From a virus (taxonomy: Duplodnaviria; Caudoviricetes): 64,000 nt of DNA. Below, one piece after another: positions 694-63,851 of the stretch. Each line of letters starts with the position of its first letter. The first letter of the stretch is position 1. The stretch is taken from IMG/VR virus record IMGVR_UViG_3300027566_000003. One strand, given 5' to 3'. Made by a program: the position numbers and the translations under genes. The notes under the pieces were generated by a model. That model did no database searches. It saw only the letters and a program-made list of their open reading frames with translations, and was not told the origin of the DNA.

Positions 694-1454
694 TAAATAT
701 AATTTTGATTAATAACAATAAATCAATACTGAACAAATCCCACCACATTTTCATCAACCCAATTATCGTCAAGAAGTCTAACATATGTAAAAATATCATT
801 ATCTCTAATATTCCTATACAAAACTAAAATACTATGATCATGTTCACTTACTTGCCAATTTGAAAAACATAAACTTATATTCTCATTAATAACTAAAATA
901 TATCCATTGTAATAATACTCATCAATGAATTTAATTTCTGCATCATTTACTACAACATTTAATAAGATTCCTAAATCTCCTTCTGCATTAGCAGATTCAA
1001 TTTGAATTTGTGTTCCAATTACTTTTTTCATGAAGAAATCTAAATTAAATTCTTGAAATTCATCCATTTAAAACAACCCCAATCTTTTTATTTTTGTCTT
1101 TAATTTACCGCATTTGAAGCATATGTAGTGAATAAATTTATGAGATTTTGTGTATTTGGATTCAATATGGATATAATTGTGGATACAGAATAGTTGTTTG
1201 ATGAATTTTATGATGGGTTTAAATATTCTAATAGTCATCATTTATTTCTCGTTTGATAAAATTTGGTCTTATATTTGATTCTTTTGGTCTATTTGGTGAA
1301 TTACAATCACAACAAAAACATTTACATTTAATATTACAGAATTTTGTATTACATCCGAAATAATTTTCTATACGTTGTTTTAAATCATTCCAATGAATGC
1401 AATCTGTGCAAGATACTGTGGGATTTTTGTTTGACATTTTTCATTTCTCCTTAT

Positions 1455-1886
1455 TTAATAATCCTCTTCATCTTCATCCAAACCTAATTCTCTTTCATAA
1501 AATCTAACTTTATCTGCTAATTCGTTTTCCAACTTATAAATTTTATTTTGTAAATATTCTTCAATTAATACCCCTGTGTTCGGAATAATTTGTTTACATC
1601 TGTCATCATATAATTCAATCATCCCATAATCTTTTTCTGATGTAACTTCTAATACCTGACCAATATGTTTTTCACACCATTTATTAATAATATATAAAGA
1701 ATATATTCTCTCGGGATTGTTACTCGAAACTCTTGCCGTAAATATCTTTACATTTCTACCTTCATTTAACCATTCTTTTACTCTGTTTAACATTAGAGGT
1801 ATTGGTTCTCCTATATGTTCTGATCCTCTCCATTTATCATATTTTGCTAAAGTTCTATCTAAGTCCACGCCTATCCAACCATTCAT
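1455..1886 (-). CDS. HAD-superfamily phosphatase-like protein (phage polynucleotide phosphatase-type)
   Basis: N-terminal WIGVDLDRTLA (DxDxT-like), KIFTAR motif II, YDDR motif IV. Confidence 0.6.
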   Translation of the reverse strand: MNGWIGVDLDRTLAKYDKWRGSEHIGEPIPLMLNRVKEWLNEGRNVKIFTARVSSNNPERIYSLYIINKWCEKHIGQVLEVTSEKDYGMIELYDDRCKQIIPNTGVLIEEYLQNKIYKLENELADKVRFYERELGLDEDEEDY

Positions 1887-2731
1887 TTTTTATATTCATC
1901 CTTTCTTAATTAACATAGAATTTATCTTTTCTGGGAACTAATCTTCTATAAGATTCTCTAATTGGGTTGGATAATCTTTTCTTTCTAAACTAGTTTTAAT
2001 AATATTTACTCTATTGCTAATTATATCTTTTAAAAATAGAATGCATTCTGCCCAAGTATCATCTATGTCATTAAATGCTTTGCCATCAACATATAGTAAG
2101 CAATCATCAAGGTCATTTATTAATATAGTTAATTCTCTCATGTAATTCTCCTTTTCAATCAACACGAAATAGGTTCTTTATCGGGTTGCTTTAAGCGAAG
2201 GCAGATAATAGTCAAGACTATACGCCTTAATATCTAACACATCTGAGCATCCTATCTCCTGACTATGAGTTAATTGTACTATTGCAAAGTAATTATTGCC
2301 AAATTTTATGTAATCTTGATGTCTAATCTCAATTGTTTTATAATGTTTATTTATCCAATAAGCAAGTTTTAGTAAATATTTTTTAATCATTTGTAATATC
2401 TCCTTTCCGATAAATTCATTATTTCTCAGGATTACATTACATCTCTTTTCATATAGTCATTTATAATATCTCTTAATCTCTGCTCAATCTCTTTATTCCA
2501 AAACCAAGTAGGAGTATCAAAATTTGCTATTCTTTCACATGCTTCACAGTCATGCATAGATTGGGCAGTACCTAGAGACTCATGCTCTATCTTACCTTGA
2601 TTTATATAATAATTGCATCCAGACCATTTAAAATTTGTTTCTTGTGGATAATGTTTAAGATAATCTGCATTAAGTTCATCTAATTCTTCTTGTGTTGTAA
2701 TTTTATATGTGGTCAATATAATTCACCTCCT

Positions 2732-3424
2732 TTACAAATTTACTCTAACAGTAAAATCAGCATAATAAGTAGTCGTTCCTGCTCTATTATCCTCACACCA
2801 TTTATCTAACAACATCTGTAATTCTTTTTGGTCTTCATCTGAGATATTATCCATTGCATCTTCATGTAAGTCACTACAAGCATTTTCAATAATATCATAA
2901 GCATCTATAGACAATTCAATTGCTTGTGTCCCATAAACTCTTAATGACGCTACCTCATTTTCCTCATAACCTTTGTCATGTATCCATTCTTCAAAATCTT
3001 CGACATTAATATATTTATCATGACTATGACTATAAAGCATTTCGTATTTTTCACTTGCTTCTTCAAATGATATTTTCTTTGCGTTGTTCCATGTTTCTAA
3101 ATCTTTATCATGTCTTTCTTTAATACGCTCTTGTACAACATATTCACAATTACACTGAGATGAACTTCTATCTAATATTTTTCCGCAATATAAACATTTA
3201 CTTTGTACACCTCTATAACAATGTCTACAACCTGTGATTGTTTGTTGTTTATATGGAAAATGAACTTTATTATTTTCACTTTTAAGTCCGAAAGGATGAT
3301 CATCTATTTGAAGTCCTGTGCCTCCACAGTGGGAGCAGATAACTTCATGTTCTTGTAAGTCTTTTTGAAGTTTTAAGTTGAATGATACGCCTACTAATTC
3401 GGTTCTAATTGTCATTTTATTCAT
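2732..3424 (-). CDS. Hypothetical protein with DnaJ-type CxxCxGxG zinc finger
   Basis: CSHCGGTG ... CRHCYRG ... CLYCG. Confidence 0.5.
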   Translation of the reverse strand: MNKMTIRTELVGVSFNLKLQKDLQEHEVICSHCGGTGLQIDDHPFGLKSENNKVHFPYKQQTITGCRHCYRGVQSKCLYCGKILDRSSSQCNCEYVVQERIKERHDKDLETWNNAKKISFEEASEKYEMLYSHSHDKYINVEDFEEWIHDKGYEENEVASLRVYGTQAIELSIDAYDIIENACSDLHEDAMDNISDEDQKELQMLLDKWCEDNRAGTTTYYADFTVRVNL

Positions 3425-3656
3425 CTCCTTTATATGAGTTAAACTATTTCTCCATCTGCTTCAATTTCATTTAATTTACATTCAATATAGTCAATTATTT
3501 CATTTGGGTATTTATTTTTAAGTTTCTCTTCTGCTTTATCAACTTCCCATTTACTATTACAAACCCCATATACATTACCTTTTAAATCTACAACTACATA
3601 AACCGTCATAAAATTTCTCCTTTTTAAGATATTACAAAACTATCATTTTTTCGGAT

Positions 3657-4991: not shown

Positions 4992-6166
4992 TTTTTGAAT
5001 TTATACGTTTATGTGTAAATTATAAACAGTTTTACTATTAGATACATCAATCATAAATTGAAAGTCTTTCTTAAGATAATCTCTCATTCTCAATTTTGCA
5101 TATTTTATCAGTAATCTTAATATAAGCATCATTCAAACATCTGTACTGATTATATTCTTTTTTACATTTATCTTTAAGTTTATGTAAATCTTTTAATTCT
5201 TTAATCAAATTTTCTAAAAAATCTTCTATAAACTTAATATCCTCTGATTCTAATCCATAATTCAACATCATTTTATTGAAATTATCATACGTATTCATAA
5301 GAGTATTTACCATACTCCTATACGGTCTAAAATCCATTACATAACATCAAATAATTCTTTCGTCTCCAATAATATCATGTGTAAAATTTGTCATTTCATT
5401 TAATTCTTCTTTGTTTCTGATATTTTTTATTTCATTTACCATATACTTAATATCTTCCTTGATTGTTTTAATCATAATTTCTTTCATGTTTTTACTCCTT
5501 CTTGCGTTTGGACGCAACCCTTATTTTTTATTTATTGTTTACATATATTGTTTTTAGAACATATCAACTAAGAATATCCGCCATGTATATTGAATATCAT
5601 AGTATTTTCACATCCTTTCAATATAATAAGGATAAACTGAATACCTATCCATATGCAATCTGCATAATTATTTCTCCTTTTAACTTATTTTTCAATCTCA
5701 TACTCAATTTTTAAATCGAATTCTTTACGACAATTAGGGCATTTACAATTAAAAACTTCAATCTCATATCCATTCTCTTCATAAAAATCTTTAGAGTCAT
5801 AAACTCTATAAAAATTTCTTTCACCACAATTAGGACATTTTTCTGATATTGTTGTATTACTCCATACTGTATTATTTGGGTTATCATTATTTACTGAATA
5901 AATTGTTCGCATTTCTCCGCAAAAATCACCTTCAAATGGAACTATAAAAGTCAATTTAATCTTCCTCCTCTTCATTAGTATCATTTATAACATTGACACT
6001 ATTGGTTATCCCATTATCTCCCAATATTTCATGGATGTCATGTGCTATATCTTTAGCATCTTTTTCAGAATCTACTTCTATGTAGATTTGTAAAATGAAA
6101 TACATATGCTTACTCCTTTTTAAAATCCTTGGAAATGTTTATTTCTTGGCAAGTAAGGGAAAGCAA

Positions 6167-6628: not shown

Positions 6629-9337
6629 TTAACGTACAGGACATACCCCTGAACTACATCCATCATTTCCGATATCAAATTCTGTTTCTACTTCTTCATA
6701 TTTACTAATTAAAGAAGGAATAAATGGTTTCATTTCTGAAACTCTTCTATTATACTCTTCCTCTGTAATTGCTTCATACGGCATTAATTTATAAAATGAA
6801 TCAGATAATGATAAGAAACTTACAGCCACAACATCATCCCAATTATTATACATCCATTCTTCTACTTCTCCCCATTCATTATCACGAACCGTAACTGTAA
6901 TTGAAGCATTATGATCTACGTAGCAATCCATAAACATTTTATAATTTTCAAGTTGTTCAATTGCGGATACATCATATTTAGTTCTTCCAATAGGAGATTT
7001 TACAGGAAACTCAATAACTTTTGTTGTACATGTTTCCATTTCTTGACCTACTTCAGGAAATATAGGATAATTCAATTCTTCACAAACTTTAACTAAAGGA
7101 TCATGAGCATTAATTCTCACTCTTCTAATAAACCAATCAGATTCAGAATAATGAACTCCAGATGAAACTCCAGGAATTTGACTCAATGTGCCCTCTGGCT
7201 TGACGGTGGTTATTAATAATGATACTGGAAAACCCAATTCTTCTGCGTAAATTTTAATTGTGTCATGAGCAACTTTGCGTAATTCTCTTAATAATTCAGC
7301 TTCTTGATCTTTTGACATATCGGTAGCATTAACCATGTCTTGCCATCCAGTCAAAGAACATCCAGTAAGTCTATCTCTTTTTTGTATTATATTCCATTTT
7401 GGAAGTTCTAACTCTACGCAAGTCATACGATAACCAGCTTTTGCTGACAGTCTTTGTGCTTCCAATAAAGAAATTAAATCTAATGTACCATCAGAAACAA
7501 AAGCGTATACATTAACTGTTGTTAAGTTGCACAATCCATTTGCATCTAATAAAATTTCGGCACAATTATGTGCAACTACATTTTCTACAATCCCCCAATT
7601 AGTAGATGGTTCTGAAAAATCATAAACCTTTTGCTTATCTAATATTTTAATAGATATTACCGTTGGATTTTTCCCATAATATGCTGATAAATTTTTATTT
7701 AATGATTCTACAGCCTTACATTCTTGACAATTTTCTAACATTAATACGTGATCAGGAGTACATTTAATAACTTTATTATTGCTCAGTTGTACTTCAACAA
7801 TATCTTTTTCTCCATTACACCAAACTTTACCACTAGATATTTCCCCATTTAAATTAACAATCTTAACTTCTTTTCCATCTAATTCTTCAAATGTTTTATA
7901 TCCATCTGAGGTCAATAAATTCATATCGCCAGTGAAACAAGGATTAACCCCATTAAAGTTTGATCTACGTTTATTACCTGTAATTTCATTAACAAAAGCA
8001 GGTTCCCCTGAATATCTCATCTGTTCAACTTGCCAATGAATTTGTTCTCTTGAAGGTTTTTCTTTATAATAGATAGAATTATTACTCATTTGTCTATGAG
8101 ATAGTTCTGAATCTATTTCCCATTTTCCATTAGATGATTGTTTGTATAAGTTGCTTTTTGCTTTAATACATTCATCATCATCTGAATCAATTAAAGCAAT
8201 CAAGCTAGTCCTTCTTACTCCTCCGATTACAACATTTTCACCAATACTTGCCAACATATCTAAACAATTAATTGGTCTAAGTTTAATTTTATCTAATCCT
8301 TGAATGAGTCCTTCTTTGTTAATAATTTTATTTACTTTAGAAAACATTGATTTTAAACTTTCGTACCCTGATGCAGTTCCACCAAATGTCTTTAATCTTT
8401 CTCCTTTTGGTCTAACATAATTGTAATCAAATACAACTGTTTTAATATCTGTAAAGTCTTTATCCCATAATATCTTAAAATAATAATCTAATGCTTGACT
8501 CCAGCCACCCTTGCTATCACCTACAATGATCTTTATCATATTGTTGTTTATGAAAATAATAGATGTATTATCTTCACGTTTATCTTTAAGAACAGGAGTA
8601 TAATCTTTATGAATCACTTCTATATTTGTTTTTACTTTTGGAAGTTTAGATACGTCATTTTTTAAAATTCTAAAACCAAAACCAGAACCAATCATAAGCA
8701 AGTAAAAAGCATCTTTAAAAGATTCAAAGTTATCAATTACGGAGAAACTGCAATTAAAGTTAGAAGTAGGGTATTTTTCTGAAACTAATGTTCCACCTAT
8801 GTATAATGTTCTTCCAGACAAGAATTGTCTAAGATAAAAGATATTATCATATAATTTTTCTGCTTCTTCTACAGAAGTTGGAACTAAACTACAATTGTAT
8901 TCTACAGCCCTTTTTACTGTTTCCCACCAATATTCTCTACGTCCTTCATATGGGAGATATCTACTATATGTACGGTAATAAACAAAACTTCCTAGTTGTT
9001 TCATTGGTGATGGTAGATGTTTATATTTACTAAGGAACTCTTCACTGAGGAGACCTTTCACTTTATTTTTTCTTGTTTTATCCCTTTGATTTCTATAAAT
9101 TATATATCGTTTGGCTACATCTTTTCTATTACTTTCCATTAACATATCTTCTACAAAATCTTGAATATTTTCAACTGAGTATATATCTAGTCCAATAGAC
9201 TCAATTTTATTTGCAATTTCATGACTTAGTTTTGTATCAACACCATCTTTTGTTTCAAGCATAGCATTTTCAATTGCACGAATGATACTATTTTTATCAA
9301 AATCAACTAGTGTACTATTTCTTTTTTGTACCTTCAA
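6629..9337 (-). CDS. nrdJ: Class II (B12-dependent) ribonucleoside-triphosphate reductase with N-terminal ATP cone and an intein
   Basis: ATP cone KVQKRNSTLVDFDKNSI; RTYSR, GGVRR, KPEGTLS; C-terminal CSSGVC; splicing restores NPCAE; no small-subunit gene adjacent. Confidence 0.92.
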   Translation of the reverse strand: MKVQKRNSTLVDFDKNSIIRAIENAMLETKDGVDTKLSHEIANKIESIGLDIYSVENIQDFVEDMLMESNRKDVAKRYIIYRNQRDKTRKNKVKGLLSEEFLSKYKHLPSPMKQLGSFVYYRTYSRYLPYEGRREYWWETVKRAVEYNCSLVPTSVEEAEKLYDNIFYLRQFLSGRTLYIGGTLVSEKYPTSNFNCSFSVIDNFESFKDAFYLLMIGSGFGFRILKNDVSKLPKVKTNIEVIHKDYTPVLKDKREDNTSIIFINNNMIKIIVGDSKGGWSQALDYYFKILWDKDFTDIKTVVFDYNYVRPKGERLKTFGGTASGYESLKSMFSKVNKIINKEGLIQGLDKIKLRPINCLDMLASIGENVVIGGVRRTSLIALIDSDDDECIKAKSNLYKQSSNGKWEIDSELSHRQMSNNSIYYKEKPSREQIHWQVEQMRYSGEPAFVNEITGNKRRSNFNGVNPCFTGDMNLLTSDGYKTFEELDGKEVKIVNLNGEISSGKVWCNGEKDIVEVQLSNNKVIKCTPDHVLMLENCQECKAVESLNKNLSAYYGKNPTVISIKILDKQKVYDFSEPSTNWGIVENVVAHNCAEILLDANGLCNLTTVNVYAFVSDGTLDLISLLEAQRLSAKAGYRMTCVELELPKWNIIQKRDRLTGCSLTGWQDMVNATDMSKDQEAELLRELRKVAHDTIKIYAEELGFPVSLLITTVKPEGTLSQIPGVSSGVHYSESDWFIRRVRINAHDPLVKVCEELNYPIFPEVGQEMETCTTKVIEFPVKSPIGRTKYDVSAIEQLENYKMFMDCYVDHNASITVTVRDNEWGEVEEWMYNNWDDVVAVSFLSLSDSFYKLMPYEAITEEEYNRRVSEMKPFIPSLISKYEEVETEFDIGNDGCSSGVCPVR
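7565..7939 (-). mobile_element. Mini-intein (125 aa, no endonuclease) in nrdJ
   Basis: Begins CFTGDM, ends VYDFSEP...VVAHN; +1 residue is the Cys of NP|CAE. Confidence 0.93.
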
Positions 9338-10148
9338 TTATGTATCCTCCAATATATTTATTTTATAATTATACGATGAATATCTTCTTTTAAGGTAATT
9401 ACTTACCCCAATCATATAAAACATGGCTACATTCACAACTAAAATTATTTGATAATACCCTCATCTGTTCAATTTCTTCTTTCTTCATTCTTTCACCTTT
9501 ACTATATTTCTCTAATAATTTTCTAAGTTCTCTTGTAATATCAAGAATATCCATGTCTCCATAGTTCATTATGCATCACCTTCTTCCTTAACTACTAATT
9601 CAGTAGATTCTACTTTAATTTGCCATTGATAATTATTTTCTTGACTACAAATATTTTTAAACCTGAACAGAACAGGATTCAAATTGTCAGGAGAGTCTTT
9701 ATTAATATATCTCTTACATTCATTACATTGTTCACATTCTGAATAATTACATAGTCCATATGTCACCAAGCCTTAATCTTCCATCCTTTCATTATTATTT
9801 TCTTTATTATTTAGAAACCACCCTCTGCCAAATGGTATCATAGGGTCTCTTTTATAATAAGCACCTTTATTGGTATCTTGGTCAACTATAAATGCGAAGT
9901 TAATTTTATCATCAGTATAGTTTTGTTTATATTCTTCAAAACTTATCTGAATCCAATTACAATCTCTACCATGTAATGTTTTTATGTAATTCACCTTCTT
10001 TATGTATGATTTTATATAGCAAGAGTTCAATTAGTATTGCAAATAGGATATGTGATCAAACCCTTGCCATTATGAGATATTTTATTTTGTACTTTATATT
10101 ATGATAATAGTTTGTGATTATTCACCAATACGTTTGTAGTAAAATCCT

Positions 10149-10234
10149 TTGAAAGAGATATTTTATTGGTTTTATAGTTTTGAAAAACGGAGCATTTGGG
10201 AGTAAATTGAAGTATAAGCGAGTATGAGAGAGGT
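10149..10234. repeat. Composite intergenic element copy A (palindrome + TGAAAAACGGAGCATTT + AGTAT 10-mers); other copies at 32815-32890 and 46928-47004
   Basis: 17/17 core identity and AGTATGAGAGAGGT shared with the 46961-47004 copy; degenerate third copy. Confidence 0.8.
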
Positions 10235-10339
10235 GTTTTTTGGAATTGATGGATTTTTTGTTGGTTTTATAGATTTTACATGATAATTACCTTCTTTTGG
10301 TTAGAATTTTTTAGTGATATTTGTACCTGCTTGATAATT

Positions 10340-16885: not shown

Positions 16886-17752
16886 CTATATATTGTATTG
16901 TTCAAATAAATGTCTTTGCGGAGCAAATTTTTCGCCAAATAAATCTTTTTCTGCCTTCAATCTCGCCACTATAGCATCTTCAAAATTATCATGATAACCC
17001 AAAAATATTCTTTTATAATTATATTTAATTTGCGCTAACCAATTATTATCTCTTTCCCACCAGCAAACTCCTATAATCCCACTTTTATTATCATATCTTT
17101 TACTTTGATTAAAAGAATTTAATTGATTAGTGGCAAATCTTAAATTTGTTTTTCTATTGTCTTTTCTATTTCTATTAATATGATCAATTTGTATATTGTC
17201 TGGAACATTAATAATAAACCGATGCATTCTAAATCCTATACGATTTTTGGTTCCAACCACATAACCATCGCTTCCTGTGATCCATGTAAAATTCTTAATT
17301 AAATAATAATCTTCCAAATCAAAGTAAAATTTATCATTTTTATTTGTTGTCCATCCTATTCCATATTCTCCAGATAAATCATATGTATTATATTTTTTGT
17401 TTGCCTCAATGGTTAAACATCCACATGAATGACTTCCATTATTTCTAAGTTTTCTGCCATCAATTATTTTTCTAGTCTTCTTTTCACATTGGCATTCACA
17501 TAACCACATATCTTTATTGTCGTGCATTATTACTAACCACCTACCAAATAATTTACCTGTTAAATCTGGTAGTCCACCACATCCACAATCTTGATTATTT
17601 TTTATCATTGCACCAATTTTTATCCTTTGAGTATGTTTATGACAATCGCATTCTACCAACCACAAAGAAGCACCATGTTTATTGAAACCTTTATGCTCCA
17701 ACACTTTCCAATTATTAATTTTTTGTCCAGTTAGATCTTTAAATTTTGGCAT
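16886..17752 (-). CDS. Free-standing HNH endonuclease with AP2 domain (putative homing endonuclease)
   Basis: Repeated DLTG+.FG+W N-terminal units; MHRFI...IDHINRNRKDNRKTNLR; C-terminal WLAQI..NYKRIFLGY...EDAIVAR. Confidence 0.85.
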   Translation of the reverse strand: MPKFKDLTGQKINNWKVLEHKGFNKHGASLWLVECDCHKHTQRIKIGAMIKNNQDCGCGGLPDLTGKLFGRWLVIMHDNKDMWLCECQCEKKTRKIIDGRKLRNNGSHSCGCLTIEANKKYNTYDLSGEYGIGWTTNKNDKFYFDLEDYYLIKNFTWITGSDGYVVGTKNRIGFRMHRFIINVPDNIQIDHINRNRKDNRKTNLRFATNQLNSFNQSKRYDNKSGIIGVCWWERDNNWLAQIKYNYKRIFLGYHDNFEDAIVARLKAEKDLFGEKFAPQRHLFEQYNI

Positions 17753-37196: not shown

Positions 37197-37239
37197 AAGG
37201 TGTAATATATTTTATTTTCCACTTATTATATTACACCTT
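37197..37239 (-). terminator. Rho-independent terminator
   Basis: 13-bp inverted repeat AAGGTGTAATATA / TATATTACACCTT followed by TGTTTTT on the minus strand. Confidence 0.65.
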
Positions 37240-44605: not shown

Positions 44606-44813
44606 AGGGGTTGTTGAATAATAAGGACTAACAGTTACAAAAGTGAAACACTAAGCCAAAAAGCCTTTTGTAATTTTCAGTGACCAAATCCTAGTTAGTC
44701 CTTAAACATTTCGTGTTATAAATTGAGCAAACACCCAGTTTTATTATTAATCACACCGTTTGGGATTCGGTTTTTATTGTGACTGGATCTGTTTTTCAAC
44801 CCCTCGCTCAATT
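44606..44813 (-). ncRNA. Candidate structured ncRNA with pseudoknot, downstream of ligA
   Basis: Stems 44622-32/44694-704 (11 bp), 44635-43/44665-73 (9 bp), 44721-28/44806-13 (8 bp), 44735-39/44782-86; crossing pair 44606-13/44797-804; two G-U pairs form only on the minus strand. Confidence 0.55.
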
Positions 44814-44819
44814 ATTATT

Positions 44820-46820
44820 CTAATCTATTTCCCCTATCATCGTTAAAAATTCATTCTCTTGTAATACTTTAACTCCTGCGTCCAATGCTTTTTGAGTTTT
44901 TGAAGAACCTTTTAATTTTCCTACAACTAAAAAATCCAAAGATTTATTAAATCCATTTGCAAATTCTCCACCTAATCCCTCTACAATATTCTTTAATTCT
45001 TCCTTCTTATACGATTCGAACGTGCCTGTACAGTAACACTTTTTACCACTTAAAATACCGTCCACATCACTCACTTCCTTCTTTCCCTCACTCTTAAATG
45101 TAATGTATTCTAACAACCCTTCTACCAGTAAACGATGATCTTTATTATTGAAATAACTGTAAACACTATCAGATGTAATTGGACCAAAATCCTTTACTTT
45201 TAACAATTCTGTTTTTGTTGCATTCATAATATCATTTATATTATTATTGAAATGATTACATAAATTCTTTGAACCTCCTAACCCAATATCATCAATCCCC
45301 AGACTAAAAATAAATTGTTGCAATGTTGCAGTTTTACAATTTTCAATAGATTGAATTAGATTATTATATTTCTTGACTCCAAATTTAGGTAACTTGATTA
45401 TTTTCTCCCTTCTACTTTCAAGACTAAATAAATCCAAAACATTATCAATAATTCCATTTTTAATAAATAATTCTGCTGTCTTCTCACTAAATCCATCAAT
45501 ATTCATAGCTTGAAGACTACCAAAATGGTCTATTGATTTTACAATTTGTGCTTTACAGTTTAGTGAATTCATACAAAAATAATGTACCCCATCTTGAACT
45601 AATTCACTTCCACATGATTGACAATGTGTTGGCATTTTAATATCTGGCATATCATCTGTAACACTATCTTCCACAACACCTAAGACTTCAGGAATAACGT
45701 CATTTGAGCGTCTTATAAATATTGTTGCACCAATTTTAACCCCTTTGCGTTTAATATCATCCATACTGTTTAATGTTACATAATTTACAGTCGCTCCCAT
45801 CAATTCAACTGGTTCTACTAGACCTCTAGGAGTTACTTTTCCAGTTCTTCCTGTGTTGAATTCTGCATCCAATATTTCTGTTGTTGCCTCTTCTGACTCA
45901 TATTTATATGCAATTGCCCATCGAGGAAATTTTGTAGCAAATCCCATTAATTCTCTTGTTTGAATATCATTGATGCTTACTATTGCGCCATCTATTTCAT
46001 AATCTAAATTTGGTCTAAGTTTTTCAATTAATGCAATTTTCTCTTTAACTTCTTCAATAGTGTTGCAGAGATAATAATCTTGATCAACTGGCAATCTCAT
46101 ATCCTCAATGAATTTCATCATATCCATGTAAGTATTAAACTTTAATCCCTCGCTATAACCGATATCATAAAAGAAAGCATCTAAATTTTTATTAGCAGTT
46201 TCATTTGCATCTAAATTTTTGATTGCTCCAGATGCACCATTTCTTACATTTTTTAAAGGAATTTGAACAGCTTCATTATACTTATTAAATACACTTTTCT
46301 TCATATACGCTTCACCATGTACTTCTAATAAAATATCGCTGGGGATACTTAATGGAATTGATTTGATTGTTTTAACTTGTGCTGTAACTAATTCTCCTTT
46401 AATTCCACCAGTGCCTCTAGTTGCAGAAGACAATAGTATACCTTTGTATGTATTATTGATTGTGAGACCATCGAATTTTTTCTCTACAACATATTGAAGT
46501 TTTGGTAATTTATTTTGTTTTGCAAATTGTATATTTTTATTATGCCAAATATCAAGTTCTTCTATATTTTGTGCCTTATCCATCGAATATAATCTGGCTT
46601 TGTGTTCATGTTTCTCAAATTTATCTAATACAACGTCTCCAATTCTTTGTGTCGGACTGTCGGGAAGTATTACATTTAATTCTGCTTCTAAAGCTTCTAG
46701 TGACCGATATTTCGCGTCATACTCTTTGTCTGAGACACTTGGATTACTTAAAGTATAATATTCGTAAGAGTGCTTATTAAGTTCTTTTACAAGTTCTTTC
46801 ATTTGAATCATTTTATCCAT
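44820..46820 (-). CDS. ligA: NAD-dependent DNA ligase
   Basis: YYTLSNPSVSDKEYD, EKKFDGL, EVHGE, YEIDG, PRWAIAYKY, Zn finger, C-terminal BRCT. Confidence 0.96.
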   Translation of the reverse strand: MDKMIQMKELVKELNKHSYEYYTLSNPSVSDKEYDAKYRSLEALEAELNVILPDSPTQRIGDVVLDKFEKHEHKARLYSMDKAQNIEELDIWHNKNIQFAKQNKLPKLQYVVEKKFDGLTINNTYKGILLSSATRGTGGIKGELVTAQVKTIKSIPLSIPSDILLEVHGEAYMKKSVFNKYNEAVQIPLKNVRNGASGAIKNLDANETANKNLDAFFYDIGYSEGLKFNTYMDMMKFIEDMRLPVDQDYYLCNTIEEVKEKIALIEKLRPNLDYEIDGAIVSINDIQTRELMGFATKFPRWAIAYKYESEEATTEILDAEFNTGRTGKVTPRGLVEPVELMGATVNYVTLNSMDDIKRKGVKIGATIFIRRSNDVIPEVLGVVEDSVTDDMPDIKMPTHCQSCGSELVQDGVHYFCMNSLNCKAQIVKSIDHFGSLQAMNIDGFSEKTAELFIKNGIIDNVLDLFSLESRREKIIKLPKFGVKKYNNLIQSIENCKTATLQQFIFSLGIDDIGLGGSKNLCNHFNNNINDIMNATKTELLKVKDFGPITSDSVYSYFNNKDHRLLVEGLLEYITFKSEGKKEVSDVDGILSGKKCYCTGTFESYKKEELKNIVEGLGGEFANGFNKSLDFLVVGKLKGSSKTQKALDAGVKVLQENEFLTMIGEID

Positions 46821-46872
46821 TTACACATTCCTTCTTTCTTATATAAAAATTTAGACTTAATCCCTATGTTTA

Positions 46873-46901
46873 ATAATACATGAATTAAGTCACGATGTCA
46901 A
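46873..46901 (-). promoter_or_regulatory. sigma-A-like promoter for ligA
   Basis: TTGACA-17 bp-TATTAT. Confidence 0.65.
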
Positions 46902-47017
46902 ATATTTTATTTTTGTCTTTATACCCTCTAAAATCACAATTTTAAGGGAATTTATGGTCTTGAAAAACGGAGCATTTAAGAGTATAAGTGAGTATGAGAG
47001 AGGTTAGTTTTTATGTA

Positions 47018-47692
47018 TTATTTAATTAATGAGTTATTTAAATATGTATTATCAATTTCAATCCCTAAAAATTGTCTACCCATATCTTTTGCTACTTTTG
47101 CCACCACACAGCTACCCATGAATGGGTCGAGTATCACTTCGTTTTCTTTAGTACAACTTTCTATAATTGGTCTAATTAATTCTTCTGGTTTTTGAGTTGG
47201 ATGAACTTTATTTTTACCTCTTGGCATCACTACGTCAAATACTGTTTTCTGACCAAATTTTTCAAGTTTTCTATACCCACCCTTTCTAAACATAAGAATA
47301 AACTCACATGATTTATAGAAATAAGATGAAGGTACTGCATTTGTTTTATTCATTACTAAAAGTTCACAAAATACAAAACCTGCTTTCTCACATTCATCCC
47401 AAATTACTCTCATATTTCTATCATTTGTCATAATAAATATGTAACTACTATTTTTCATAATGGGATATAAAAGAGGTATCCATTCACTAAATTCTGGCGT
47501 TTTATAATTAAAGCATTCTCCTGATGTCGTGAATGGATTCTCACCATCATTGTTTCTTAGAAGTGAATTCTTTCTACCTCCAGCCACTAATTTATATGGA
47601 GGATCTGTAAAAATCATATCAATACTTTCTGGAAGAATATTTTTCAATCCTTCAATTGCATCTATATTATGTACTTTATTTAATTCTAATAT
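47018..47692 (-). CDS. Orphan DNA methyltransferase (N6A/N4C, beta class); probable ATA/ATT start
   Basis: FTDPPY, HPTQKP, DPFMGS; N-terminal LNKVHNIDAIEGL lies above the track TTG, behind AAGAGGT. Confidence 0.9.
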   Translation of the reverse strand: MLELNKVHNIDAIEGLKNILPESIDMIFTDPPYKLVAGGRKNSLLRNNDGENPFTTSGECFNYKTPEFSEWIPLLYPIMKNSSYIFIMTNDRNMRVIWDECEKAGFVFCELLVMNKTNAVPSSYFYKSCEFILMFRKGGYRKLEKFGQKTVFDVVMPRGKNKVHPTQKPEELIRPIIESCTKENEVILDPFMGSCVVAKVAKDMGRQFLGIEIDNTYLNNSLIK

Positions 47693-48002: not shown

Positions 48003-48405
48003 TTATTCATCAATCCCTTTTACATTATAATCACCGTATTCCATATCTTCATCCTTTAAAAGTTTCTCTACAACTGGATACCCTAACTCCTTCAATAACC
48101 TAATCCAATCTTCATTTGAGACTCTATGCCCTTCACGTACAAAATCTTCACCTAAATTTACTTGTAATACCTCCCAATCTCCTGATTCACAAGTTATTAA
48201 TTCAATTAATGGTTTAATCATCTTATATCTCTCCTCCATACTTACCAAACTCCAACTAATAGGTGATGGGCAACTACCCATAAGTTCTTTTAGTTGTTTT
48301 TTCTTTTCAGGTGTAAGACCAGACATAAACCCTCCTTTCTAAATAGCTCAAAATCCTGATTTCATAGGAAATATGTATTTCTAAAAGTGGCTTATAGCAA
48401 TGGTT

Positions 48406-49240: not shown

Positions 49241-49579
49241 TTATAGCAACTGCAATCTCTTCACAAATTTCTGTGCGTCGCTTTTTAACATAGGTGGCAA
49301 TCCTACCACCGTAAGACTTCCATAAGGAATTTCGGTTAACCCATTATCTCTTATAAAATAAAATCCTTGCCCAATTAATTTTTCCAAATCTTTTTGTTTT
49401 CCTCGTAAAATAATTTTCTTTTGATCTGATTCATACCATTGCCAAAACAAATCCCATCGTTTGTTGTTTTTGCCTATCGCAATCATTGTTGCAACATGAC
49501 CAACTTGTGCAGCAATCTTGCCACAACTCATGTTTAATTCAGAATTCACAACAAAATATTCTACTAGTTCATCGTCCAT
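49241..49579 (-). CDS. Peptidyl-tRNA hydrolase, Pth2 type (copy 1)
   Basis: NSELNMSCGKIAAQVGH, QKKIILRG, IRDNGLTEIP..SLTVVGLPP. Confidence 0.88.
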   Translation of the reverse strand: MDDELVEYFVVNSELNMSCGKIAAQVGHVATMIAIGKNNKRWDLFWQWYESDQKKIILRGKQKDLEKLIGQGFYFIRDNGLTEIPYGSLTVVGLPPMLKSDAQKFVKRLQLL

Positions 49580-53209: not shown

Positions 53210-53875
53210 TTTTAGTTTCCTCTTTCGTATGTATTTTATTTTTGTTTGATTAGTTGAAATATAAGAGAGAAGGGGCTATTGCCCCATATATTCAATTTTT
53301 CTTTTAATATAATCATCCATCGTCATTCCTCCTTTTATTATTTCATATTTAAATGGACATTTTTTTATCCCCATCTTATGCTCTTTAATCATTACTTCCA
53401 TAATATCAATTTTTTCTATATGGAATTGTATACCAAATTTTATTTTAATTCCCTTATCTCGGAGAACATGCAAACATGTGATTGCATCTAATTCGCTAGA
53501 GTATGTATAAAATCCATTTATAAGCTGTTCTGAAGAAGAATATATATCTTGCTTAGTGATTTCGTCAAATGTAATAGAATTTATCCCCACATAATTCCCC
53601 TTACTGTCCTTAAGCGCATACTCTTCTATTTTCCTCATTACATCTTCTCCTCTTATTTTTATAGTGAAACCAAAACACTTGTTCCTTTCTACACATTGTT
53701 TTAGAACTGTAGTTCGTTCTATGTGTACATACATTATCCCACCTTTCATACTTAATATCAACTTTTTCTTTCCCCTTTATTAGTCAGTCTTTCGACAAAA
53801 TATTACTTTTTAACTAATTTTATTTTTTACCTTATGACAATTTTAAATTTTGGTTAGGGAATCTAACCCCAAATA

Positions 53876-54859
53876 TTACTTTGGGGTTAGACTACTTTTG
53901 TAACTGTCATACATTTCCTTTAAAGAGTTGCCATTTCTTTCATCCAATTCTAAATTCCTGTATAGTTGTTTAAAGTGATCCGGCTTCAATTCCCCTAATT
54001 CTTTCTCCATTGATAAGCATTTATCTAATAAACCACTTTTAAATATAAGAGTTGGTGTTAAGAACTTTACATTTAAATAACTTCTAAAATTTCTAAATCT
54101 TGAACTAATATTTCCTGGAGTCATTCTATCATCATCGCTAAAGAATACGTCCATAGACCTAATAATAAAGGGGGTATCCTTTAGTGGTAAAATAGAAAAT
54201 GTGTCTGTTGCATCACCATTTGATTTATGATAATATTCTTCCTTAGATGCTGCTATTAGGATATCCATAGTTCTTTGATCCACTTGAACTTTTCTTGGTG
54301 AAGGATTTTTAATTAAGTCATCGGGGTCTTTAATAACATTCACTATATTAAATTCTGGAATAAGATCAGTCTTTTTGAGATTTCTTATTTCTTCATAGGA
54401 AAATCCCTCTTTAGTTCTGCCTCTTATTCCTTCGTATAGTAATGCTATTAATGCTTTGTCAACGTAGTTGTGGAGTCTGTTGCAGTAGTCATACATTTGA
54501 TCTCTTGAAATAAATGAATTTTTTTGAGCAACTTTATGGATGTATTTTTTTAAGTCTTCCTTGTTGACTAGTTTCAAAACATTCATTGAAGAATAGTGTT
54601 TATCCAAACAGCACCAGTCTAAATATTGCATAATAATTGCATAAGCTACACCCATTGATCTAAGAGATTTCTTTTTCATTCCAATTAATAAGTCTTTAAT
54701 TTCTTCGTAACTAAAACTACACAAATCTTTATCTAGTTCATACTCAAATCTTCCTACGCTTCTTAAAATAGAAGTGTTTGTTGATCTGGTTGATTCATTT
54801 GGATATTTCTCATTTAAGAAGCAATTTTTACGATCTTCATTAAATAATTTATGATCCAT
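53876..54859 (-). CDS. Integrase-fold repressor, SPbeta YopR/MrpR/SroF-like (327 aa; true ATG at 54859)
   Basis: FNEDRKNCFL...DKDLCSFS...QYLDWC (SAM-like N-terminus), ALIALLYEGI, KFLTPTLIFKSG (recalled YopR: FLTPNTIVRSG); HxxR box degenerate; coupled to the upstream gene. Confidence 0.75.
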   Translation of the reverse strand: MDHKLFNEDRKNCFLNEKYPNESTRSTNTSILRSVGRFEYELDKDLCSFSYEEIKDLLIGMKKKSLRSMGVAYAIIMQYLDWCCLDKHYSSMNVLKLVNKEDLKKYIHKVAQKNSFISRDQMYDYCNRLHNYVDKALIALLYEGIRGRTKEGFSYEEIRNLKKTDLIPEFNIVNVIKDPDDLIKNPSPRKVQVDQRTMDILIAASKEEYYHKSNGDATDTFSILPLKDTPFIIRSMDVFFSDDDRMTPGNISSRFRNFRSYLNVKFLTPTLIFKSGLLDKCLSMEKELGELKPDHFKQLYRNLELDERNGNSLKEMYDSYKSSLTPK

Positions 54860-56239: not shown

Positions 56240-56290
56240 TGATACATGTAATTTGTATCAATATGTATCAATATGTATCAATATGTATCA
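56240..56290. repeat. Four tandem 10-bp repeats (AT[A/T]TGTATCA) plus one inverted TGATACA, in the sroE-like 5' leader
   Basis: 56251-60 ATTTGTATCA; 56261-70, 56271-80, 56281-90 ATATGTATCA; TGATACA at 56240-46. Confidence 0.9.
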
Positions 56291-58232: not shown

Positions 58233-59062
58233 TAGAATTCACCTCCTTTTTCATTAATTTTTACATCATCCATTACTATATCCTGCGTAGCAAGATTTTC
58301 GTATGTCTGGTGTATTCTTTTTTCAACTTTTAGGATATAATTAACTATTAATAATATAAATGTTATAGTAATCGTCGGGATAATAAACATCATAACTACT
58401 ATAATTAATTGTTCAAAAAACGATAAATTTATTAAAATTAAATCTATTCCTATTAGTTTAATTAAGTAAATCATTGTAATCATTATACCTATCAATAAAC
58501 TAAACATTGATCTTTTTAAGAAACTATTTTTTAGTATTATATCAAATAACTTAATTTTTACATCTTCACTTTTTTTTACTATTAAGTATGTCAATATAGA
58601 ATATTCTATTACTCTTGCTGGTAATGAACATAAAAAATTCAAAATAAAGTTGGAGTTTATGTATAAGATATTTGTTTTTGTGAGAGATAATATTAACGGG
58701 TAGTAGCATTCTAATATTGAAATAATGAAAATTCCTAATATTGTATAAAACAATGCTTTAAAGTATTTAATCTTCTCTTGAAGTAAATTATTATTTTTTA
58801 TAACAACTAATGTTAATAAATATAATACTAGTATACCAGTTATTTGGGCAATAGATTTTGAAATATTTGTTAATCTTGCAAAACTTATTATAAAAGACAT
58901 TCCAATTGCTGGTAAAGCGACCCATTTTATATTATCTTTCCACATTCTGATATCTAATAAATCATCTCTACTTATACCTATTAATACTATTGCTACAACG
59001 AACAATTCTTCTGGTAAACTTACTAAAAACATGTTTAATAAGGCATTAATTGTACTTTGCAT
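58232..59062 (-). CDS. Polytopic membrane protein resembling an AgrC/VirS sensor domain, without kinase domains
   Basis: 276 aa, about 7 hydrophobic segments, short cytoplasmic tail; no H-box or HATPase motifs; translationally coupled to agrD. Confidence 0.6.
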   Translation of the reverse strand: MQSTINALLNMFLVSLPEELFVVAIVLIGISRDDLLDIRMWKDNIKWVALPAIGMSFIISFARLTNISKSIAQITGILVLYLLTLVVIKNNNLLQEKIKYFKALFYTILGIFIISILECYYPLILSLTKTNILYINSNFILNFLCSLPARVIEYSILTYLIVKKSEDVKIKLFDIILKNSFLKRSMFSLLIGIMITMIYLIKLIGIDLILINLSFFEQLIIVVMMFIIPTITITFILLIVNYILKVEKRIHQTYENLATQDIVMDDVKINEKGGEF

Positions 59063-59114
59063 ATGTATCTACTCCCTATCTCTTATTATTTATCTTATTA
59101 TTTATCTTAGGATA

Positions 59115-59144
59115 ATTATACCATATGCAAAGTATATAAGTCAA
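59115..59144 (-). promoter_or_regulatory. Promoter for the sensor-like gene and agrD
   Basis: TTGACT-18 bp-TATAAT with TGn extended -10. Confidence 0.65.
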
Positions 59145-59153
59145 TAAATAATT

Positions 59154-61381: not shown

Positions 61382-61412
61382 TATTTAATTTATTTCCTCC
61401 TCTTTATTTTTA

Positions 61413-61832
61413 TTATGCATAAACTACACCATTTTTATTTCTTAATTCTACCAATCCAAACTGTATACCGATTCCTCTATCAATTCTTAACATAGTTTCC
61501 TCATCGCATTGTCCTATTTTTTCTTCAATCAAATCTCTCGTGACTGGCATGGACTGTTCGCAGAGAGCAATAGAATCCATTTTTAGGCCAGAATTTCTAC
61601 TGATGGGTATATGAGTAGGTAATTTTGATTTTGTGGTCACAGAAGTTAAAGGACATATATGTAGTACATTGGAATATTGATTACAGGCGTTGTTGCTAAT
61701 TATCACTACGGGACGCTTAAATTGTTGGATAGATCCATTACTGTTGGGAAGATTTGCAATATAGATATCGCCCCTCTTAATCTCTTTTTGAGCTTGAACA
61801 TTATTTATTGTTTGTTTCATAATACTAATCAC
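61413..61832 (-). CDS. mazF: Orphan PemK/MazF endoribonuclease
   Basis: KRGDIYIANL...KRPVVIISN...PLTS...LPTHI...DSIALCEQ; no antitoxin-like neighbour. Confidence 0.85.
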   Translation of the reverse strand: MISIMKQTINNVQAQKEIKRGDIYIANLPNSNGSIQQFKRPVVIISNNACNQYSNVLHICPLTSVTTKSKLPTHIPISRNSGLKMDSIALCEQSMPVTRDLIEEKIGQCDEETMLRIDRGIGIQFGLVELRNKNGVVYA

Positions 61833-61864
61833 TCCTTTTTATTTTCTTATGATTAGTATTATGA
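61817..61864 (-). promoter_or_regulatory. Perfect 15-bp inverted repeat that would sequester the mazF start codon region
   Basis: TCATAATACTAATCA 61817-31 / TGATTAGTATTATGA 61850-64; the 18-nt loop holds AAAAAGGAG. Confidence 0.7.
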
Positions 61865-62630
61865 CCAATAATTTGTCCAATATACCTATTATTTTATAAA
61901 AATTTTATTTATATTGTATAACTATTACTTGCAATCAAAATTACATTCTAATTATTACCACCATAAACTATCCAAACACAAAGCAAACAAACTAACTACA
62001 TCATCAGCTTTCTCTTTTTGCGCATCTGTCATTTTGTATTCATCGATAGTTAAATAAATCTTTAAACCATCTAACATCCTATCAATACATTCTTGAAATG
62101 TAATTGTTTTCCCTTTGAACTCGTATTTATGAAAAGACGTATCAATACTATTTACTTCATTATACATAGATAATCTTTCATATAACCATAATTTAAATGT
62201 AAAATCCATCGACCAAGTTTCCTTTTCATCAAAACCATATATTTCTCTTTCTTTCGACCATTTCTCCTGTCTAGGATCATCTTTATTCCAACCTTGATGA
62301 GTATTATCCTCTTTTATACCGATGTCTTTAAGATATTTGCCTAACATTTAATTATCATCCTTAAATATTAAATCCTTTAAAAAACTTGTTTGCTAGGATT
62401 GTTTAAATAATTTACAATAATCTTCCCATACATTCATTGCAAGTATTTTCTATATATTTAACAATTTCACTATATGTCTCAAAACTTATTTTCTTGTTCT
62501 TCTCACAATTCTTACACTTATTAAGCGATCCTAATATAAAATTTACCTGTAATAATACACGTAATTTTATATATTCCCATTCTATCTTCAGTATTTTTAT
62601 ATGGCATGTTTCTCCTTTACTATTTATATT

Positions 62631-63155
62631 TTATAGTAATTGTAATCTCTTCACATACTTTTTCGCATCTTGTTTAAGCATAGGTGGCAATCCTACCACC
62701 GTAAGACTTCCATAAGGAATTTCGGTTAACCCATTATCCCTTATGTAATAAAACCCTGCGTCAATTAACTTCTCCAAATCCTTTTGTTTACCACGCAAAA
62801 TTATTTTCTTTTGATCTAATTCATACCATTGCCAAAATAATCCCCATCGTTTAAAACTATTTTCTACTGCAATTATTGTTGCAACATGAGCTACTTGGGC
62901 AGCAACCTTCCCTGGGCTTAGGTTTAATTCTGAATTCACGATAAAATATTCTACAATTTCAAATTCCTCTGGTTTAATAAAACTCATATTAAATTCCTCT
63001 TTACAATTAGGACAATTAAAATAACTACCACTAGAATTTTGTTCGATAGGTATGATGTCTACAATATCATATTTTTTAAATTGTTTTTTAGTTTCTCTAT
63101 TCCATTCTTCAGATGTTGATAACGCTCCGCAATTTGGGCATATGTATTTTTTCAT
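62631..63155 (-). CDS. Zn-ribbon::Pth2 peptidyl-tRNA hydrolase fusion (copy 2)
   Basis: CPNCG...CPNCK N-terminus, then NSELNLSPGKVAAQVAH...; 60-bp block identical to copy 1. Confidence 0.85.
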   Translation of the reverse strand: MKKYICPNCGALSTSEEWNRETKKQFKKYDIVDIIPIEQNSSGSYFNCPNCKEEFNMSFIKPEEFEIVEYFIVNSELNLSPGKVAAQVAHVATIIAVENSFKRWGLFWQWYELDQKKIILRGKQKDLEKLIDAGFYYIRDNGLTEIPYGSLTVVGLPPMLKQDAKKYVKRLQLL

Positions 63156-63851
63156 TTTTTATTTTCCTTTTTACTCCTTTAAATCTGTTCTTTAAGGTTA
63201 TTCAATAAAAAATTTTAGTTCAGGAAATGTCTCAATTGATAATATTTTACCTGCTAGTCTTACCCATTTATCAACCGCAATAGGATTATTCATATATACT
63301 TTATCTGGTAAATGCTCTGCCAATTCTAGAACTGCTTTTGCTAAGTCAATCTTTTCTTGATCCATTATGTTTAGTTACCTCCTATCTATCTGAACACTTT
63401 CTATTTCAGATAATCTATAAATAATACAAGTCTTATCATTTTCTAAAGCATTAAAATCAGTTTTACTATTTAACAACCAATCTTCAAAGAATTCTTTAGT
63501 TAATTTAGCATCGGGATAATTATGTACTACTCCGCTTTTTAATTGAATTTTTATCGCCATTTAAAATCACTCCTTTTTTTTGATCCATTAAAACTGTTTC
63601 ATTTATTTGCTTCTCTAAAAGCATTTTTAAGCATCTTAAGTTCCATATTTTGAATTGTTTTTGTACTTGGAAATAATATATTATCAACACAATTGTTAAT
63701 AAAAACTAAAACCTCTTTGTCTGTCTTATTTAACCATTCTTGATCCTCCATAATTGTAGCAAAATATTCCCTATAATTTTGAATAAATTCTTTCATTATT
63801 TTCACCTCCATTTGATTAAAATAACTCTTTTGAGAGAGTTGTATTTTTTTA

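Follow-up and report, generated by a model that had tools for sequence, protein, structure and literature searches.

Junction dyads in the accessory arrays of an SPbeta-like groundwater phage: a possible degenerate form of a gene-exchange joint

Xer-family recombinases act on dif sites, in which inverted A-rich and T-rich arms of roughly 11 bp lie beside a 6-bp central region, and in the pdif modules of Acinetobacter plasmids many dif-like sites flank single genes or a few genes that are mobile between replicons. Integron attC sites measure 57-141 bp, function as a folded single strand and require IntI. In T4-type phages, the promoter-early stem-loop (PeSL) cassettes recombine by homology; each pairs a strong sigma70-like promoter with a working terminator stem-loop (PMC2839356, PMC4122927). 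The stoperators of Cluster A mycobacteriophages are asymmetric, orientation-dependent 13-mers, some of them at promoters, and the immunity repressor that binds them is a monomer (PMC9283540). SPbeta itself has a repeated dyad, SPBRE, which is read by the integrase-fold protein MrpR, and all ten MrpR peaks detected there by ChAP-seq lie at SPBRE promoters (PMC10516654); SPbeta also carries yopP, an orphan gene of the XerC superfamily (PMC8612738).

The element described here belongs to an SPbeta-like phage from groundwater, in which junction dyads sit among many small genes. The window, that is, the whole stretch of 64,000 nt that was analysed, is part of a wider 94-kb record of the same phage that is about 56% complete, and the genome has a GC content of 28%. 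As in the PeSL cassettes, copies of a short conserved motif separate small, non-essential genes within variable regions, and the insertions, deletions and replacements that distinguish related phages fall at the motif, which has been proposed there as a driver of modular shuffling; unlike PeSLs, the element has neither a promoter consensus nor a stable stem, but is an arm-spacer-arm palindrome of 18-26 bp with a position-specific spacer. Its 10-6-10 geometry fits the inverted A-rich and T-rich arms and 6-bp centre of Xer/dif sites, but the arms are shorter, their sequence differs from typical dif sequences, and the 94 kb of this phage contain no Xer-type gene, whereas SPbeta has yopP. Like attC, the dyad is an imperfect palindrome following each promoterless single-gene cassette, but it measures only 26 bp, does not fold stably and has no IntI-type gene to accompany it in the 94 kb. 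With the stoperators it shares a copy number above 20 for one short site, placed in the narrow intergenic gaps of a series of co-directional genes; in contrast to them, the element is symmetric, with arms that score alike (7.8 vs 8.9, p=0.31) and flanks that mirror one another, and MrpR, the repressor type that is known, reads another operator.

The consensus of the junction dyad in the window is (T)CC-N4-AAA-N6-TTT-N4-GG(A), a weak, symmetric, 26-bp sequence in which extra CC/GG flanks are carried beside the AAA-N6-TTT core. In the intergenic DNA of this phage, AAA-N6/7-TTT forms a spacing-specific peak (z 5-8, about 8 in one test) and CC-N19/20-GG a second one (z 7), neither of which was found in coding DNA of the same composition. 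The combined pattern CC-N3-5-AAR-N5-7-WTT-N3-5-GG occurs nine times in 9.8 kb of intergenic DNA, as compared with 0.28 in shuffles, and permuted control patterns gave 0-1 matches. Membership was scored with a cross-validated half-site model at thresholds of at least 10 and at least 12; when trained on one half of the genome, the model retrieved 11-12 sites scoring at least 12 in the other half, where 1-2 were expected. At this threshold, 19 of 24 sites in the window stand at gene boundaries and five in coding sequences, a 24-fold ratio of densities. The window thus holds a real, boundary-specific dyad, and the number of true sites is estimated at 20-35 in 94 kb. The spacers are all distinct (30/30), although this is a weak test because few duplicates would be expected by chance. 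It is very unlikely that the dyads are a functionless by-product of AT-rich composition, stop codons and Shine-Dalgarno sequences: the low GC content speaks for such an origin, as do the strict pattern WTRAAA-N6-TTTYAW of the initial annotation, which is at chance in the window (four exact matches vs 2.4 expected, with 23 of 100 shuffles doing as well), and the failure of half of the positions listed there under the model, yet the spacing peaks are missing from coding DNA of like composition, the permuted controls and the cross-validation hold, and G001, the nearest relative, has no such motif and is at its null, although its architecture is the same and its GC content lower still.

The 34 sites that had been listed initially, with 0-3 mismatches to the strict pattern, divide into 16 that score at least 10 and 18 that score below; the total of about 30 was roughly right, but half of the positions are non-members and several good dyads had been overlooked. 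The highest-scoring site, at 32811-32836 (24.3), reads TCCCATGAAA-n6-TTTTAAAGGA and has a right arm that is itself the RBS. Together with 46924-46949 (21.8), which is followed by a TTGACA-17-TATTAT promoter at 46901-46873, and 10145-10170 (20.3), an exact WTRAAA-N6-TTTYAW match, it terminates one of three minus-strand copies of a long repeat, D2, of about 80-90 nt. These copies lie at 10171-10250, 32837-32895 and 46950-47012, each adjoining its dyad, and the D2 element is common to this window and phage G002. The remaining strong sites comprise 62373-62398 (21.8), which is 25 nt ahead of the start of the gene at 61955-62347; 42128-42153 (19.3); 35579-35604 (19.3), which begins 1 nt past a stop codon; 6126-6151 (17.8), with a separate RBS downstream; 30705-30730 (16.7), which adjoins a TAA stop and precedes a 38-aa gene by 15 nt; and 2406-2431 (16.5), which also adjoins a TAA stop. 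Spacers of 7 nt are found at 44584-44610 (14.0) and at 40315-40341 (13.3), the latter 1 nt past a stop; weaker members are 48344-48369 (12.6) and 34939-34964 (11.9), the right arm of which is the RBS. The dyads absent from the earlier list are 34551-34575 (17.5, with a 5-nt spacer), 25922-25947 (16.0), 39815-39840 (12.8), which lies over the stop at 39833-39835 and contains an exact match to the strict pattern, 44388-44413 and 38518-38543 (both 12.6 and both over a stop), and 9372-9397 (12.1), just upstream of the RNR gene, where homology with G001 begins at 9373.

The placement originally proposed, after or over a stop codon and ahead of the next RBS, was borne out: about half of the dyads adjoin a stop codon, which is often part of the left arm, and 17 of the 21 top sites have a start codon 7-34 nt beyond the end of the right arm. 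The reported lack of sites in the replication core is correct, though not informative, the counts being 0/8 vs 19/112 junctions (p=0.35). A position between stop and RBS would suit an RNA-level hairpin acting in termination, attenuation, processing or the hiding of the RBS for translational coupling, the more so as the right arm AAAGGA itself serves as the RBS at roughly one site in four, where the left arm offers a complementary UCC, and as a T-run follows some copies; most dyads, however, have a separate RBS further downstream. No stable hairpin was found at the dyads, the folding energies (-0.3 to -6.3 kcal/mol) being no better than those of shuffles (z +1.1 to -1.3), the arms show no covariation (64% paired vs 66.5% in shuffles), the dyad matches no Rfam family, and a genuine terminator of this genome, a 12-bp stem at 53862-53891, looks quite different, all of which makes an RNA element improbable to a high degree. 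Symmetric arms, the lack of covariation and negligible hairpins together point to recognition of the dyad as duplex DNA rather than as a fold.

A sharper version of the palindrome is present in SPbeta, where WTRAAA-N6-TTTYAW occurs in 34 copies against 1.6 expected and ATAAAA-N6-TTTTAW in 26 against 0.6, and where the sequence logo shares with the window dyads both the core and the position between stop and RBS, overlap with the stop codon included. The canonical palindrome is also enriched in G002 (29 vs 4.8 expected), and the SPbeta spacers are all distinct (34/34). We compared the arrays of nine SPbeta-group phages, which are not independent genomes and which yielded 366 breakpoints; the anti-defence genes Gad1 and Gad2 are located in these arrays. 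Of the breakpoints, 22% are no more than 10 nt from a palindrome centre, as compared with 1.2% for random and 7.2% for random intergenic positions, and a homology breakpoint is found at 67 of 68 palindromic junctions but at 69 of 163 others (p=2e-18). The difference holds when junctions are matched for length (65/66 vs 42/106) and when genomes are counted singly (in SPbeta, for example, 8/8 vs 4/13), and where junctions are long, the 12 nt on either side of the centre take up 53% of the breakpoints, against 25% under a uniform draw. Spacer identity is 0.95 where the upstream gene alone is shared and 0.97 where the downstream gene alone is shared, compared with 0.31 between unrelated palindromes, while flank identity falls to background at the palindrome edge, so that the entire 18-mer, including its slot-specific spacer, is retained whichever flank is exchanged. 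The coincidence of breakpoints with palindromes and the retention of the 18-mer on either side argue, from genome comparison, that the palindrome marks the joints of swappable single-gene modules in the SPbeta group, although selection for intact units, rather than mechanism, could account for part of the pattern.

The gene-cassette exchange suggested by the initial annotation is supported at the level of the family, whereas its integron-like label is not. A true integron-like system, with a dedicated IntI-type integrase that acquires cassettes by way of folded attC-like sites, would agree with palindromes that delimit single-gene units and with the breakpoints on the palindrome in the SPbeta relatives, but it is extremely improbable given sites of 18-26 bp rather than 57-141 bp that neither fold stably nor covary, the lack of an attI/Pc platform, the failure to find a tyrosine recombinase in the 94 kb, and the fact that the sites are kept with both flanks instead of travelling with one cassette.

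The other function proposed at the outset, a genome-wide operator array for a SroF/MrpR-like integrase-fold repressor, has in its favour the MrpR/YopR-like gene encoded on the minus strand at 53876-54859 (23% identical to SPbeta YopR, E 9e-17), an arm-spacer-arm geometry that suits the integrase fold, and the binding of MrpR to about ten sites in SPbeta (PMC10516654), so that in both cases a repeated dyad of an SPbeta-like phage would be read by a protein of this fold. SPBRE, as derived from seven of the promoter regions named in that study (PMC10516654), is nevertheless a different sequence, a near-invariant ACAAATAC-AAAAAATATGTATA with a 15-bp ATACA-N7-TGTAT motif, of which SPbeta has about 10 copies, 33-103 nt before start codons in promoter regions. 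This phage has a single SPBRE-like array, outside the dyad family, on the minus strand at 56241-56290, which lies 31 nt ahead of the yopQ/mrpR-like operon and consists of GATACATATT x4 plus TGATACA-N7-TGTATCA; it was found at this promoter and nowhere else in the phage, and is likely to be the MrpR operator. Identification of the dyads with SPBRE was rejected because both sequence and position differ, and since none of the ten ChAP-seq peaks of SPbeta falls at its 34 junction palindromes (PMC10516654), we regard an MrpR array as most improbable.

An operator or roadblock array of another kind deserves somewhat more credence, but is still rather unlikely: a phage-specific dimeric regulator could sit on the dyads upstream of each RBS and block or tune read-through of the accessory arrays in the manner of stoperators, the breakpoints merely reflecting unit boundaries. 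The symmetric consensus with its non-covarying arms would be consistent with such a regulator, as would the closeness of sites in long gaps to the start codon downstream (5/8 at 30 nt or less vs 2.3 expected, p=0.03), the occurrence of the dyad directly after a -10-like box in all three D2 copies, and the restriction of the CC/GG-flanked version to this phage; it is missing from G001, the lysogeny regulators of which show only about 25% identity. No candidate binder was found, however, and the genes downstream of strong dyads are ORFans; no promoter lies at a fixed distance from the dyads, as judged by information content; the core recurs in phages that are very distant, whereas immunity-type operators are seldom shared so widely; and regulation alone leaves the retention of the whole 18-mer and spacer on either side of a swap in the SPbeta relatives unexplained.

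The explanation we favour, at about even confidence, is that the window dyads are a degenerate, CC/GG-flanked form of the SPbeta-type gene-junction palindrome and that this palindrome is a gene-exchange joint. Its canonical form, ATAAAA-N6-TTTTAW, would be a duplex-DNA site of two inverted arms and a 6-bp spacer, set between the stop codon of one gene and the RBS of the next; in the SPbeta group all copies have the same arms but a spacer particular to the array position, and different genes are joined, in related phages, to the same 18-mer on either side. Exchange would take place within the identical 18-mer, either through an arm-reading protein for which the spacers would be mutually incompatible addresses, allowing exchange between phages and preventing deletion within a genome, or through the short-homology recombination of the phage itself. 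We infer that the sites of the window act, or formerly acted, in the same way. Sequence comparison indicates that the palindrome, sharp in SPbeta, appears here as a worn local version, the canonical 18-mer showing hardly any enrichment (7 copies in 94 kb vs 2.7 expected); the CC/GG flanks are not seen in the SPbeta logo, and the dyad could therefore be the site of a different protein. G001 shares 14 diverged blocks with this phage, two of which start after a dyad, as expected by chance, and too few accessory genes are shared for a breakpoint test; three other assemblies also contain contigs of the phage, but these are 100% identical over 11-17 kb each and thus show no shuffling.

A PF00589 tyrosine recombinase gave no match in the 94-kb record, about 56% complete, while all control genomes gave matches. 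The family is present in SPbeta (YopP) and G002, both with the canonical palindrome, and absent from G001, which lacks the palindrome, an association that is anecdotal at n=4. A system that is decaying or re-specified would fit both the degenerate dyads and the failure to find a recombinase gene in the 94 kb available. YopP is a candidate enzyme for exchange at the palindrome in SPbeta, and a bolder proposal, which we hold only tentatively and consider improbable as a whole, is that SPbeta-like phages run a recombinase-mediated cassette exchange in which an arm-reading enzyme, possibly YopP, would act on the 18-bp sites of co-resident phages, the spacers serving as addresses in the manner of heterospecific lox sites, so that genes could be traded slot by slot while arrays are spared self-deletion, and the window would be a diverged or decaying copy. 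Of all leads, the recombinase-site geometry of arms around a 6-bp spacer, noted from the start, is still the most interesting, and the geometry itself is real.

A description of the palindrome was sought in the searchable literature, and in particular in the main comparative study of SPbeta-like phages, and none was found. In these phages the turnover of genes for anti-defence and other host interactions takes place in the accessory arrays, and clean single-gene swaps between phages would be accounted for by a defined joint of 18 bp whose spacers are slot-specific. It would supply a concrete, mutable sequence for the decades-old "linker" idea of modular phage evolution and a possible job for yopP, a conserved recombinase-like gene of unknown function; as SPbeta and phi3T are genetically tractable, the exchange role is directly testable there.

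Gene boundaries in the window carry a genuine junction dyad, a 26-bp symmetric motif of two arms separated by a spacer of about 6 bp, with the consensus (T)CC-n-AT-n-AAA-N6-TTT-n-AT-n-GG(A). The initial annotation had described it as WTRAAA-N6-TTTYAW at 34 positions; taken strictly, that pattern has 4 exact matches against 2.4 expected, which is chance level, and the 34 sites deviate from it by 0–3 mismatches. A related dyad nevertheless peaks in intergenic DNA. Genome-wide, the most enriched 3-mer dyad is AAA-N6-TTT (64 vs 28), and the spacing peaks AAA-N6/7-TTT and CC-N19/20-GG are sharp in intergenic DNA (z 5–8) and missing from coding DNA of matching composition. Next to the 67 AAA-N6-TTT cores that lie between genes, C is enriched at −6 to −4 and G at the mirror positions, whereas the 181 coding cores hold no flank information. 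The 9.8 kb of intergenic DNA contain 9 copies of the extended dyad, where shuffled sequence gives 0.28 and permuted control patterns give 0–1. All-against-all clustering of intergenic spacers returned mostly ribosome-binding sites and low complexity.

A half-site model applied to the phage's 94 kb yields 30 sites scoring at least 12, compared with 3.7 expected, and when it is trained on one genome half, 11–12 sites are recovered in the other half against 1–2 expected. Within the window, 19 such sites lie at gene boundaries and 5 in coding sequences, a 24-fold difference in density. By this model 16 of the 34 positions originally listed qualify, while 18 fail and several good sites had been missed; the accompanying observation that the replication core has none is correct but without statistical weight (0/8 vs 19/112, p = 0.35).

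All long ORFs of the window lie on the minus strand, so the left "CC" of the plus-strand reading is transcriptionally downstream, next to the Shine-Dalgarno sequence; all dyad analyses are in minus-strand orientation. The placement first proposed, after or over a stop codon and before the next RBS, was borne out: the right arm ends 7–34 nt before a start codon in 17 of the 21 top sites, and roughly half of the sites directly adjoin the preceding stop codon. Even in long gaps the dyad keeps close to the start codon that follows: 5 of 8 lie within 30 nt of it, where 2.3 would be expected (p = 0.03). The scores of the two arms are similar, RNA folding of the sites (−0.3 to −6.3 kcal/mol) is no better than that of shuffles, and arm covariation is absent (64% paired vs 66.5% in shuffles), so that the element is no hairpin, terminator, or attC-like fold and its symmetry is a property of the consensus, as for two half-sites read on duplex DNA. 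A strong terminator-like hairpin with a 12-bp stem at 53862–53891, which overlaps the stop of the mrpR-like gene, illustrates what a genuine terminator looks like here; one SPbeta copy of the element is annotated as a stem-loop in the SPbeta record (116406–116431). An Rfam search matched no family, promoter scans were barely above chance in the AT-rich DNA of the window, and genes downstream of strong dyads showed no DNA-binding domain in Pfam or PHROGs. Phylogenetic profiling for a binder, on partial records, returned only a C5 methyltransferase.

The window spans bases 9395–73394 of a 94,410-bp viral record from a groundwater metagenome, about 56% complete by CheckV, and has a GC content of 28%. 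It encodes an SPbeta-like replication module (PolIII alpha, a RecD2-like helicase, and a RecJ-like nuclease), an NAD ligase, an RNR, and an MrpR/YopR-type integrase-fold protein (53876–54859). The named phage collection gave no megablast match to the window, its best PolIII match being 34% identical; PolIII of the nearest relative, G001, is 82% identical. The RNR large-subunit gene (6629–9337) has a weak intein-splicing match below the Pfam cut-off, and an HNH_3 endonuclease gene (16886–17752) lies between the PolIII and RecJ-like genes; the RNR genes of SPbeta are likewise interrupted, by an intein and introns. Two paralogous genes (49241–49579 and 62631–63155; 81% identity over 300 nt) match the same G001 gene, the longer having an extra N-terminal part; their homology stops just past the stop codon and is uninformative on dyads.

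The dyad core is common to SPbeta. The notion of a phage-specific element was overturned by the very strong AAA-N6/7-TTT peak in the SPbeta early arrays (N7, 48 vs 8) and in loci of 72 relatives (N6, 359 vs 149). In SPbeta the element is a sharp palindrome of 18 nt, (G)ATAAAA-N6-TTTTA(A/T), often with a TAA stop codon inside the left arm. Observed and expected counts of WTRAAA-N6-TTTYAW are 34/1.6 in SPbeta, 29/4.8 in the viral relative G002, 7/2.7 in this phage, and 10/8.6 in G001; the dyads of the window are thus probably a degenerate offshoot of this element that has CC/GG flanks of its own. The local dyad model is at its null on G001, and the local PWM gives only a marginal excess on G002. 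Replication-core loci of 73 IMG/VR relatives were not enriched in the CC/GG dyad, but the comparison was not a fair one, as the core of the window itself is without it.

Three copies of a repeat of about 80–90 nt, D2 (10145–10250, 32811–32895, and 46924–47012), each end in a strong dyad, and a homolog occurs in the G002/G003 contigs (L102:7349–7430 and L105:1350–1430, respectively), the one real relative among 29 mostly chance matches in a pattern scan of viral contigs for the D2 core. The plus strand of all four D2 copies reads TTGAAA-17 nt-(T/C)ATAAG/CATAGT, a possible antisense promoter, and the sense strand has a −10-like box immediately before the dyad; a conserved RNA fold was not found in D2. 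A further intergenic word unrelated to ribosome-binding sites, (TA)AAGACAAAAATAAAA, occurs 4–6 times (about 53245, 52640, 49218, 46918, and 1099), the copy at 46918 sitting between a dyad and the TTGACA −35 box.

The proposal that the dyads form an operator array for an SroF/MrpR-like protein is not supported. From seven SPbeta promoter regions named in PMC10516654 we derived the MrpR operator, SPBRE, as a near-invariant ACAAATAC-AAAAAATATGTATA with ATACA-N7-TGTAT, in a single orientation and 33–103 nt before start codons; the ten SPbeta ChAP-seq peaks are all at SPBRE (PMC10516654). The window has its own SPBRE-like array at 56241–56290, made up of four tandem GATACATATT and then TGATACA-N7-TGTATCA; the yopQ-like/mrpR-like operon begins 31 nt further on. 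This array, which matches SPBRE in arms and spacer length and contains the sole ATACA-N7-TGTAT of the 94 kb, is probably an MrpR-type operator, and it differs from the junction dyads, so the two are distinct elements. Two perfect inverted repeats of the communication/lysogeny module, one upstream of gene 61413–61820 (61817–61864; 15-nt arms 18 nt apart) and the other beside a strong promoter-like site at 59144–59115 (59053–59134; arms of 13 nt with 56 nt between them), could act as operators for regulators that belong to the module.

This phage genotype turns up in several data sets: contigs of other samples (an SRA run, a JGI metagenome, and an ENA assembly) match window 17629–45552 over 11–17 kb each with 100% identity and without variation. 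The sequencing runs listed as holding the phage comprise one of DNA, which may be the source sample, and none of RNA. In this public DNA run, the main contigs are colinear with window 28000–47500, and two contig joints (32205>44936 and 35544>40908) have short sides of 22–28 nt outside dyads and leave excision unsupported, in contigs that miss rare forms. A second contig of that run (depth 10 vs 21) has 11 differences over 40371–40517 and then continues into other sequence; a related phage in which this stretch has another neighbour may coexist in the sample. Orthology with G001 left too few accessory genes in common to map breakpoints.

The correspondence between relatives' breakpoints and the motif was confirmed in the SPbeta group. 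An all-against-all alignment of nine accessory arrays (SPbeta 81.8–98.8 kb and its counterparts in Goe13, Goe11, SPbetaL8, phi3T, SPbetaL4, L6, L2, and SPR) gave 366 unique homology ends. Of these, 22% are at most 10 nt from the centre of a palindrome; for random positions the figure is 1.2%, and for random intergenic ones 7.2%. Of the 68 junctions with a palindrome, 67 contain a breakpoint, and of the 163 without, 69 do (p = 2e-18); the counts are 65/66 and 42/106 when only junctions of 25–200 nt are considered, and 8/8 and 4/13 in SPbeta by per-genome count (p about 0.002). In long palindromic junctions, 53% of breakpoints are no more than 12 nt from the centre; uniform placement would put 25% there. 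Where a block begins at a palindrome, it does so at the left edge (38 cases, at −12 to −9); where one ends there, the end is most often at the right edge (20 cases in the modal bin, +8 to +11). In this group the palindrome coincides with exchange joints and is kept whole. Flank identity drops to background exactly at the palindrome edge. Unrelated palindromes share their arms (identity 0.90–0.95) and not their spacers (0.31; distinct in 34/34 in SPbeta), whereas two phages that have a single flanking gene in common also keep the same spacer, whether that gene is the upstream (0.95, n = 50) or the downstream one (0.97, n = 26). Every slot of the arrays thus carries an address palindrome, joined to different genes on either side. 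Across SPbeta-like phages, a single array position that follows a 222-nt gene holds either of the anti-defence genes Gad1 and Gad2 (L142:13131–14018, L143:12183–13385, and L144:15609–16502), an example of alternative genes in one slot.

Our literature searches found no description of the SPbeta junction palindrome; the closest described system, the PeSL of T4-type phages (PMC2839356), differs in combining a promoter and a terminator, which the palindrome is not. Exchange would take place inside the identical 18-mer. Selection for intact units is a viable explanation of breakpoints at palindromes, as is short-homology recombination as the exchange route; that very distant phages conserve palindromic arms around a spacer fixed at 6 bp speaks for recognition by a protein over mere homology. 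YopP of SPbeta, a XerC-superfamily protein with no function assigned (PMC8612738), has a tyrosine-recombinase domain (79117–79608), and G002 has two (46370–46882 and 2424–3125), one of them a few kb upstream of a yopQ-like gene, like yopP in SPbeta. A canonical tyrosine recombinase was not found in G001 or in the 94 kb of this phage, neither of which has the sharp palindrome of SPbeta and G002; in these four genomes, with partial records, the co-occurrence is suggestive. The dyads of this window would have, or would once have had, the same role as joints of gene exchange.
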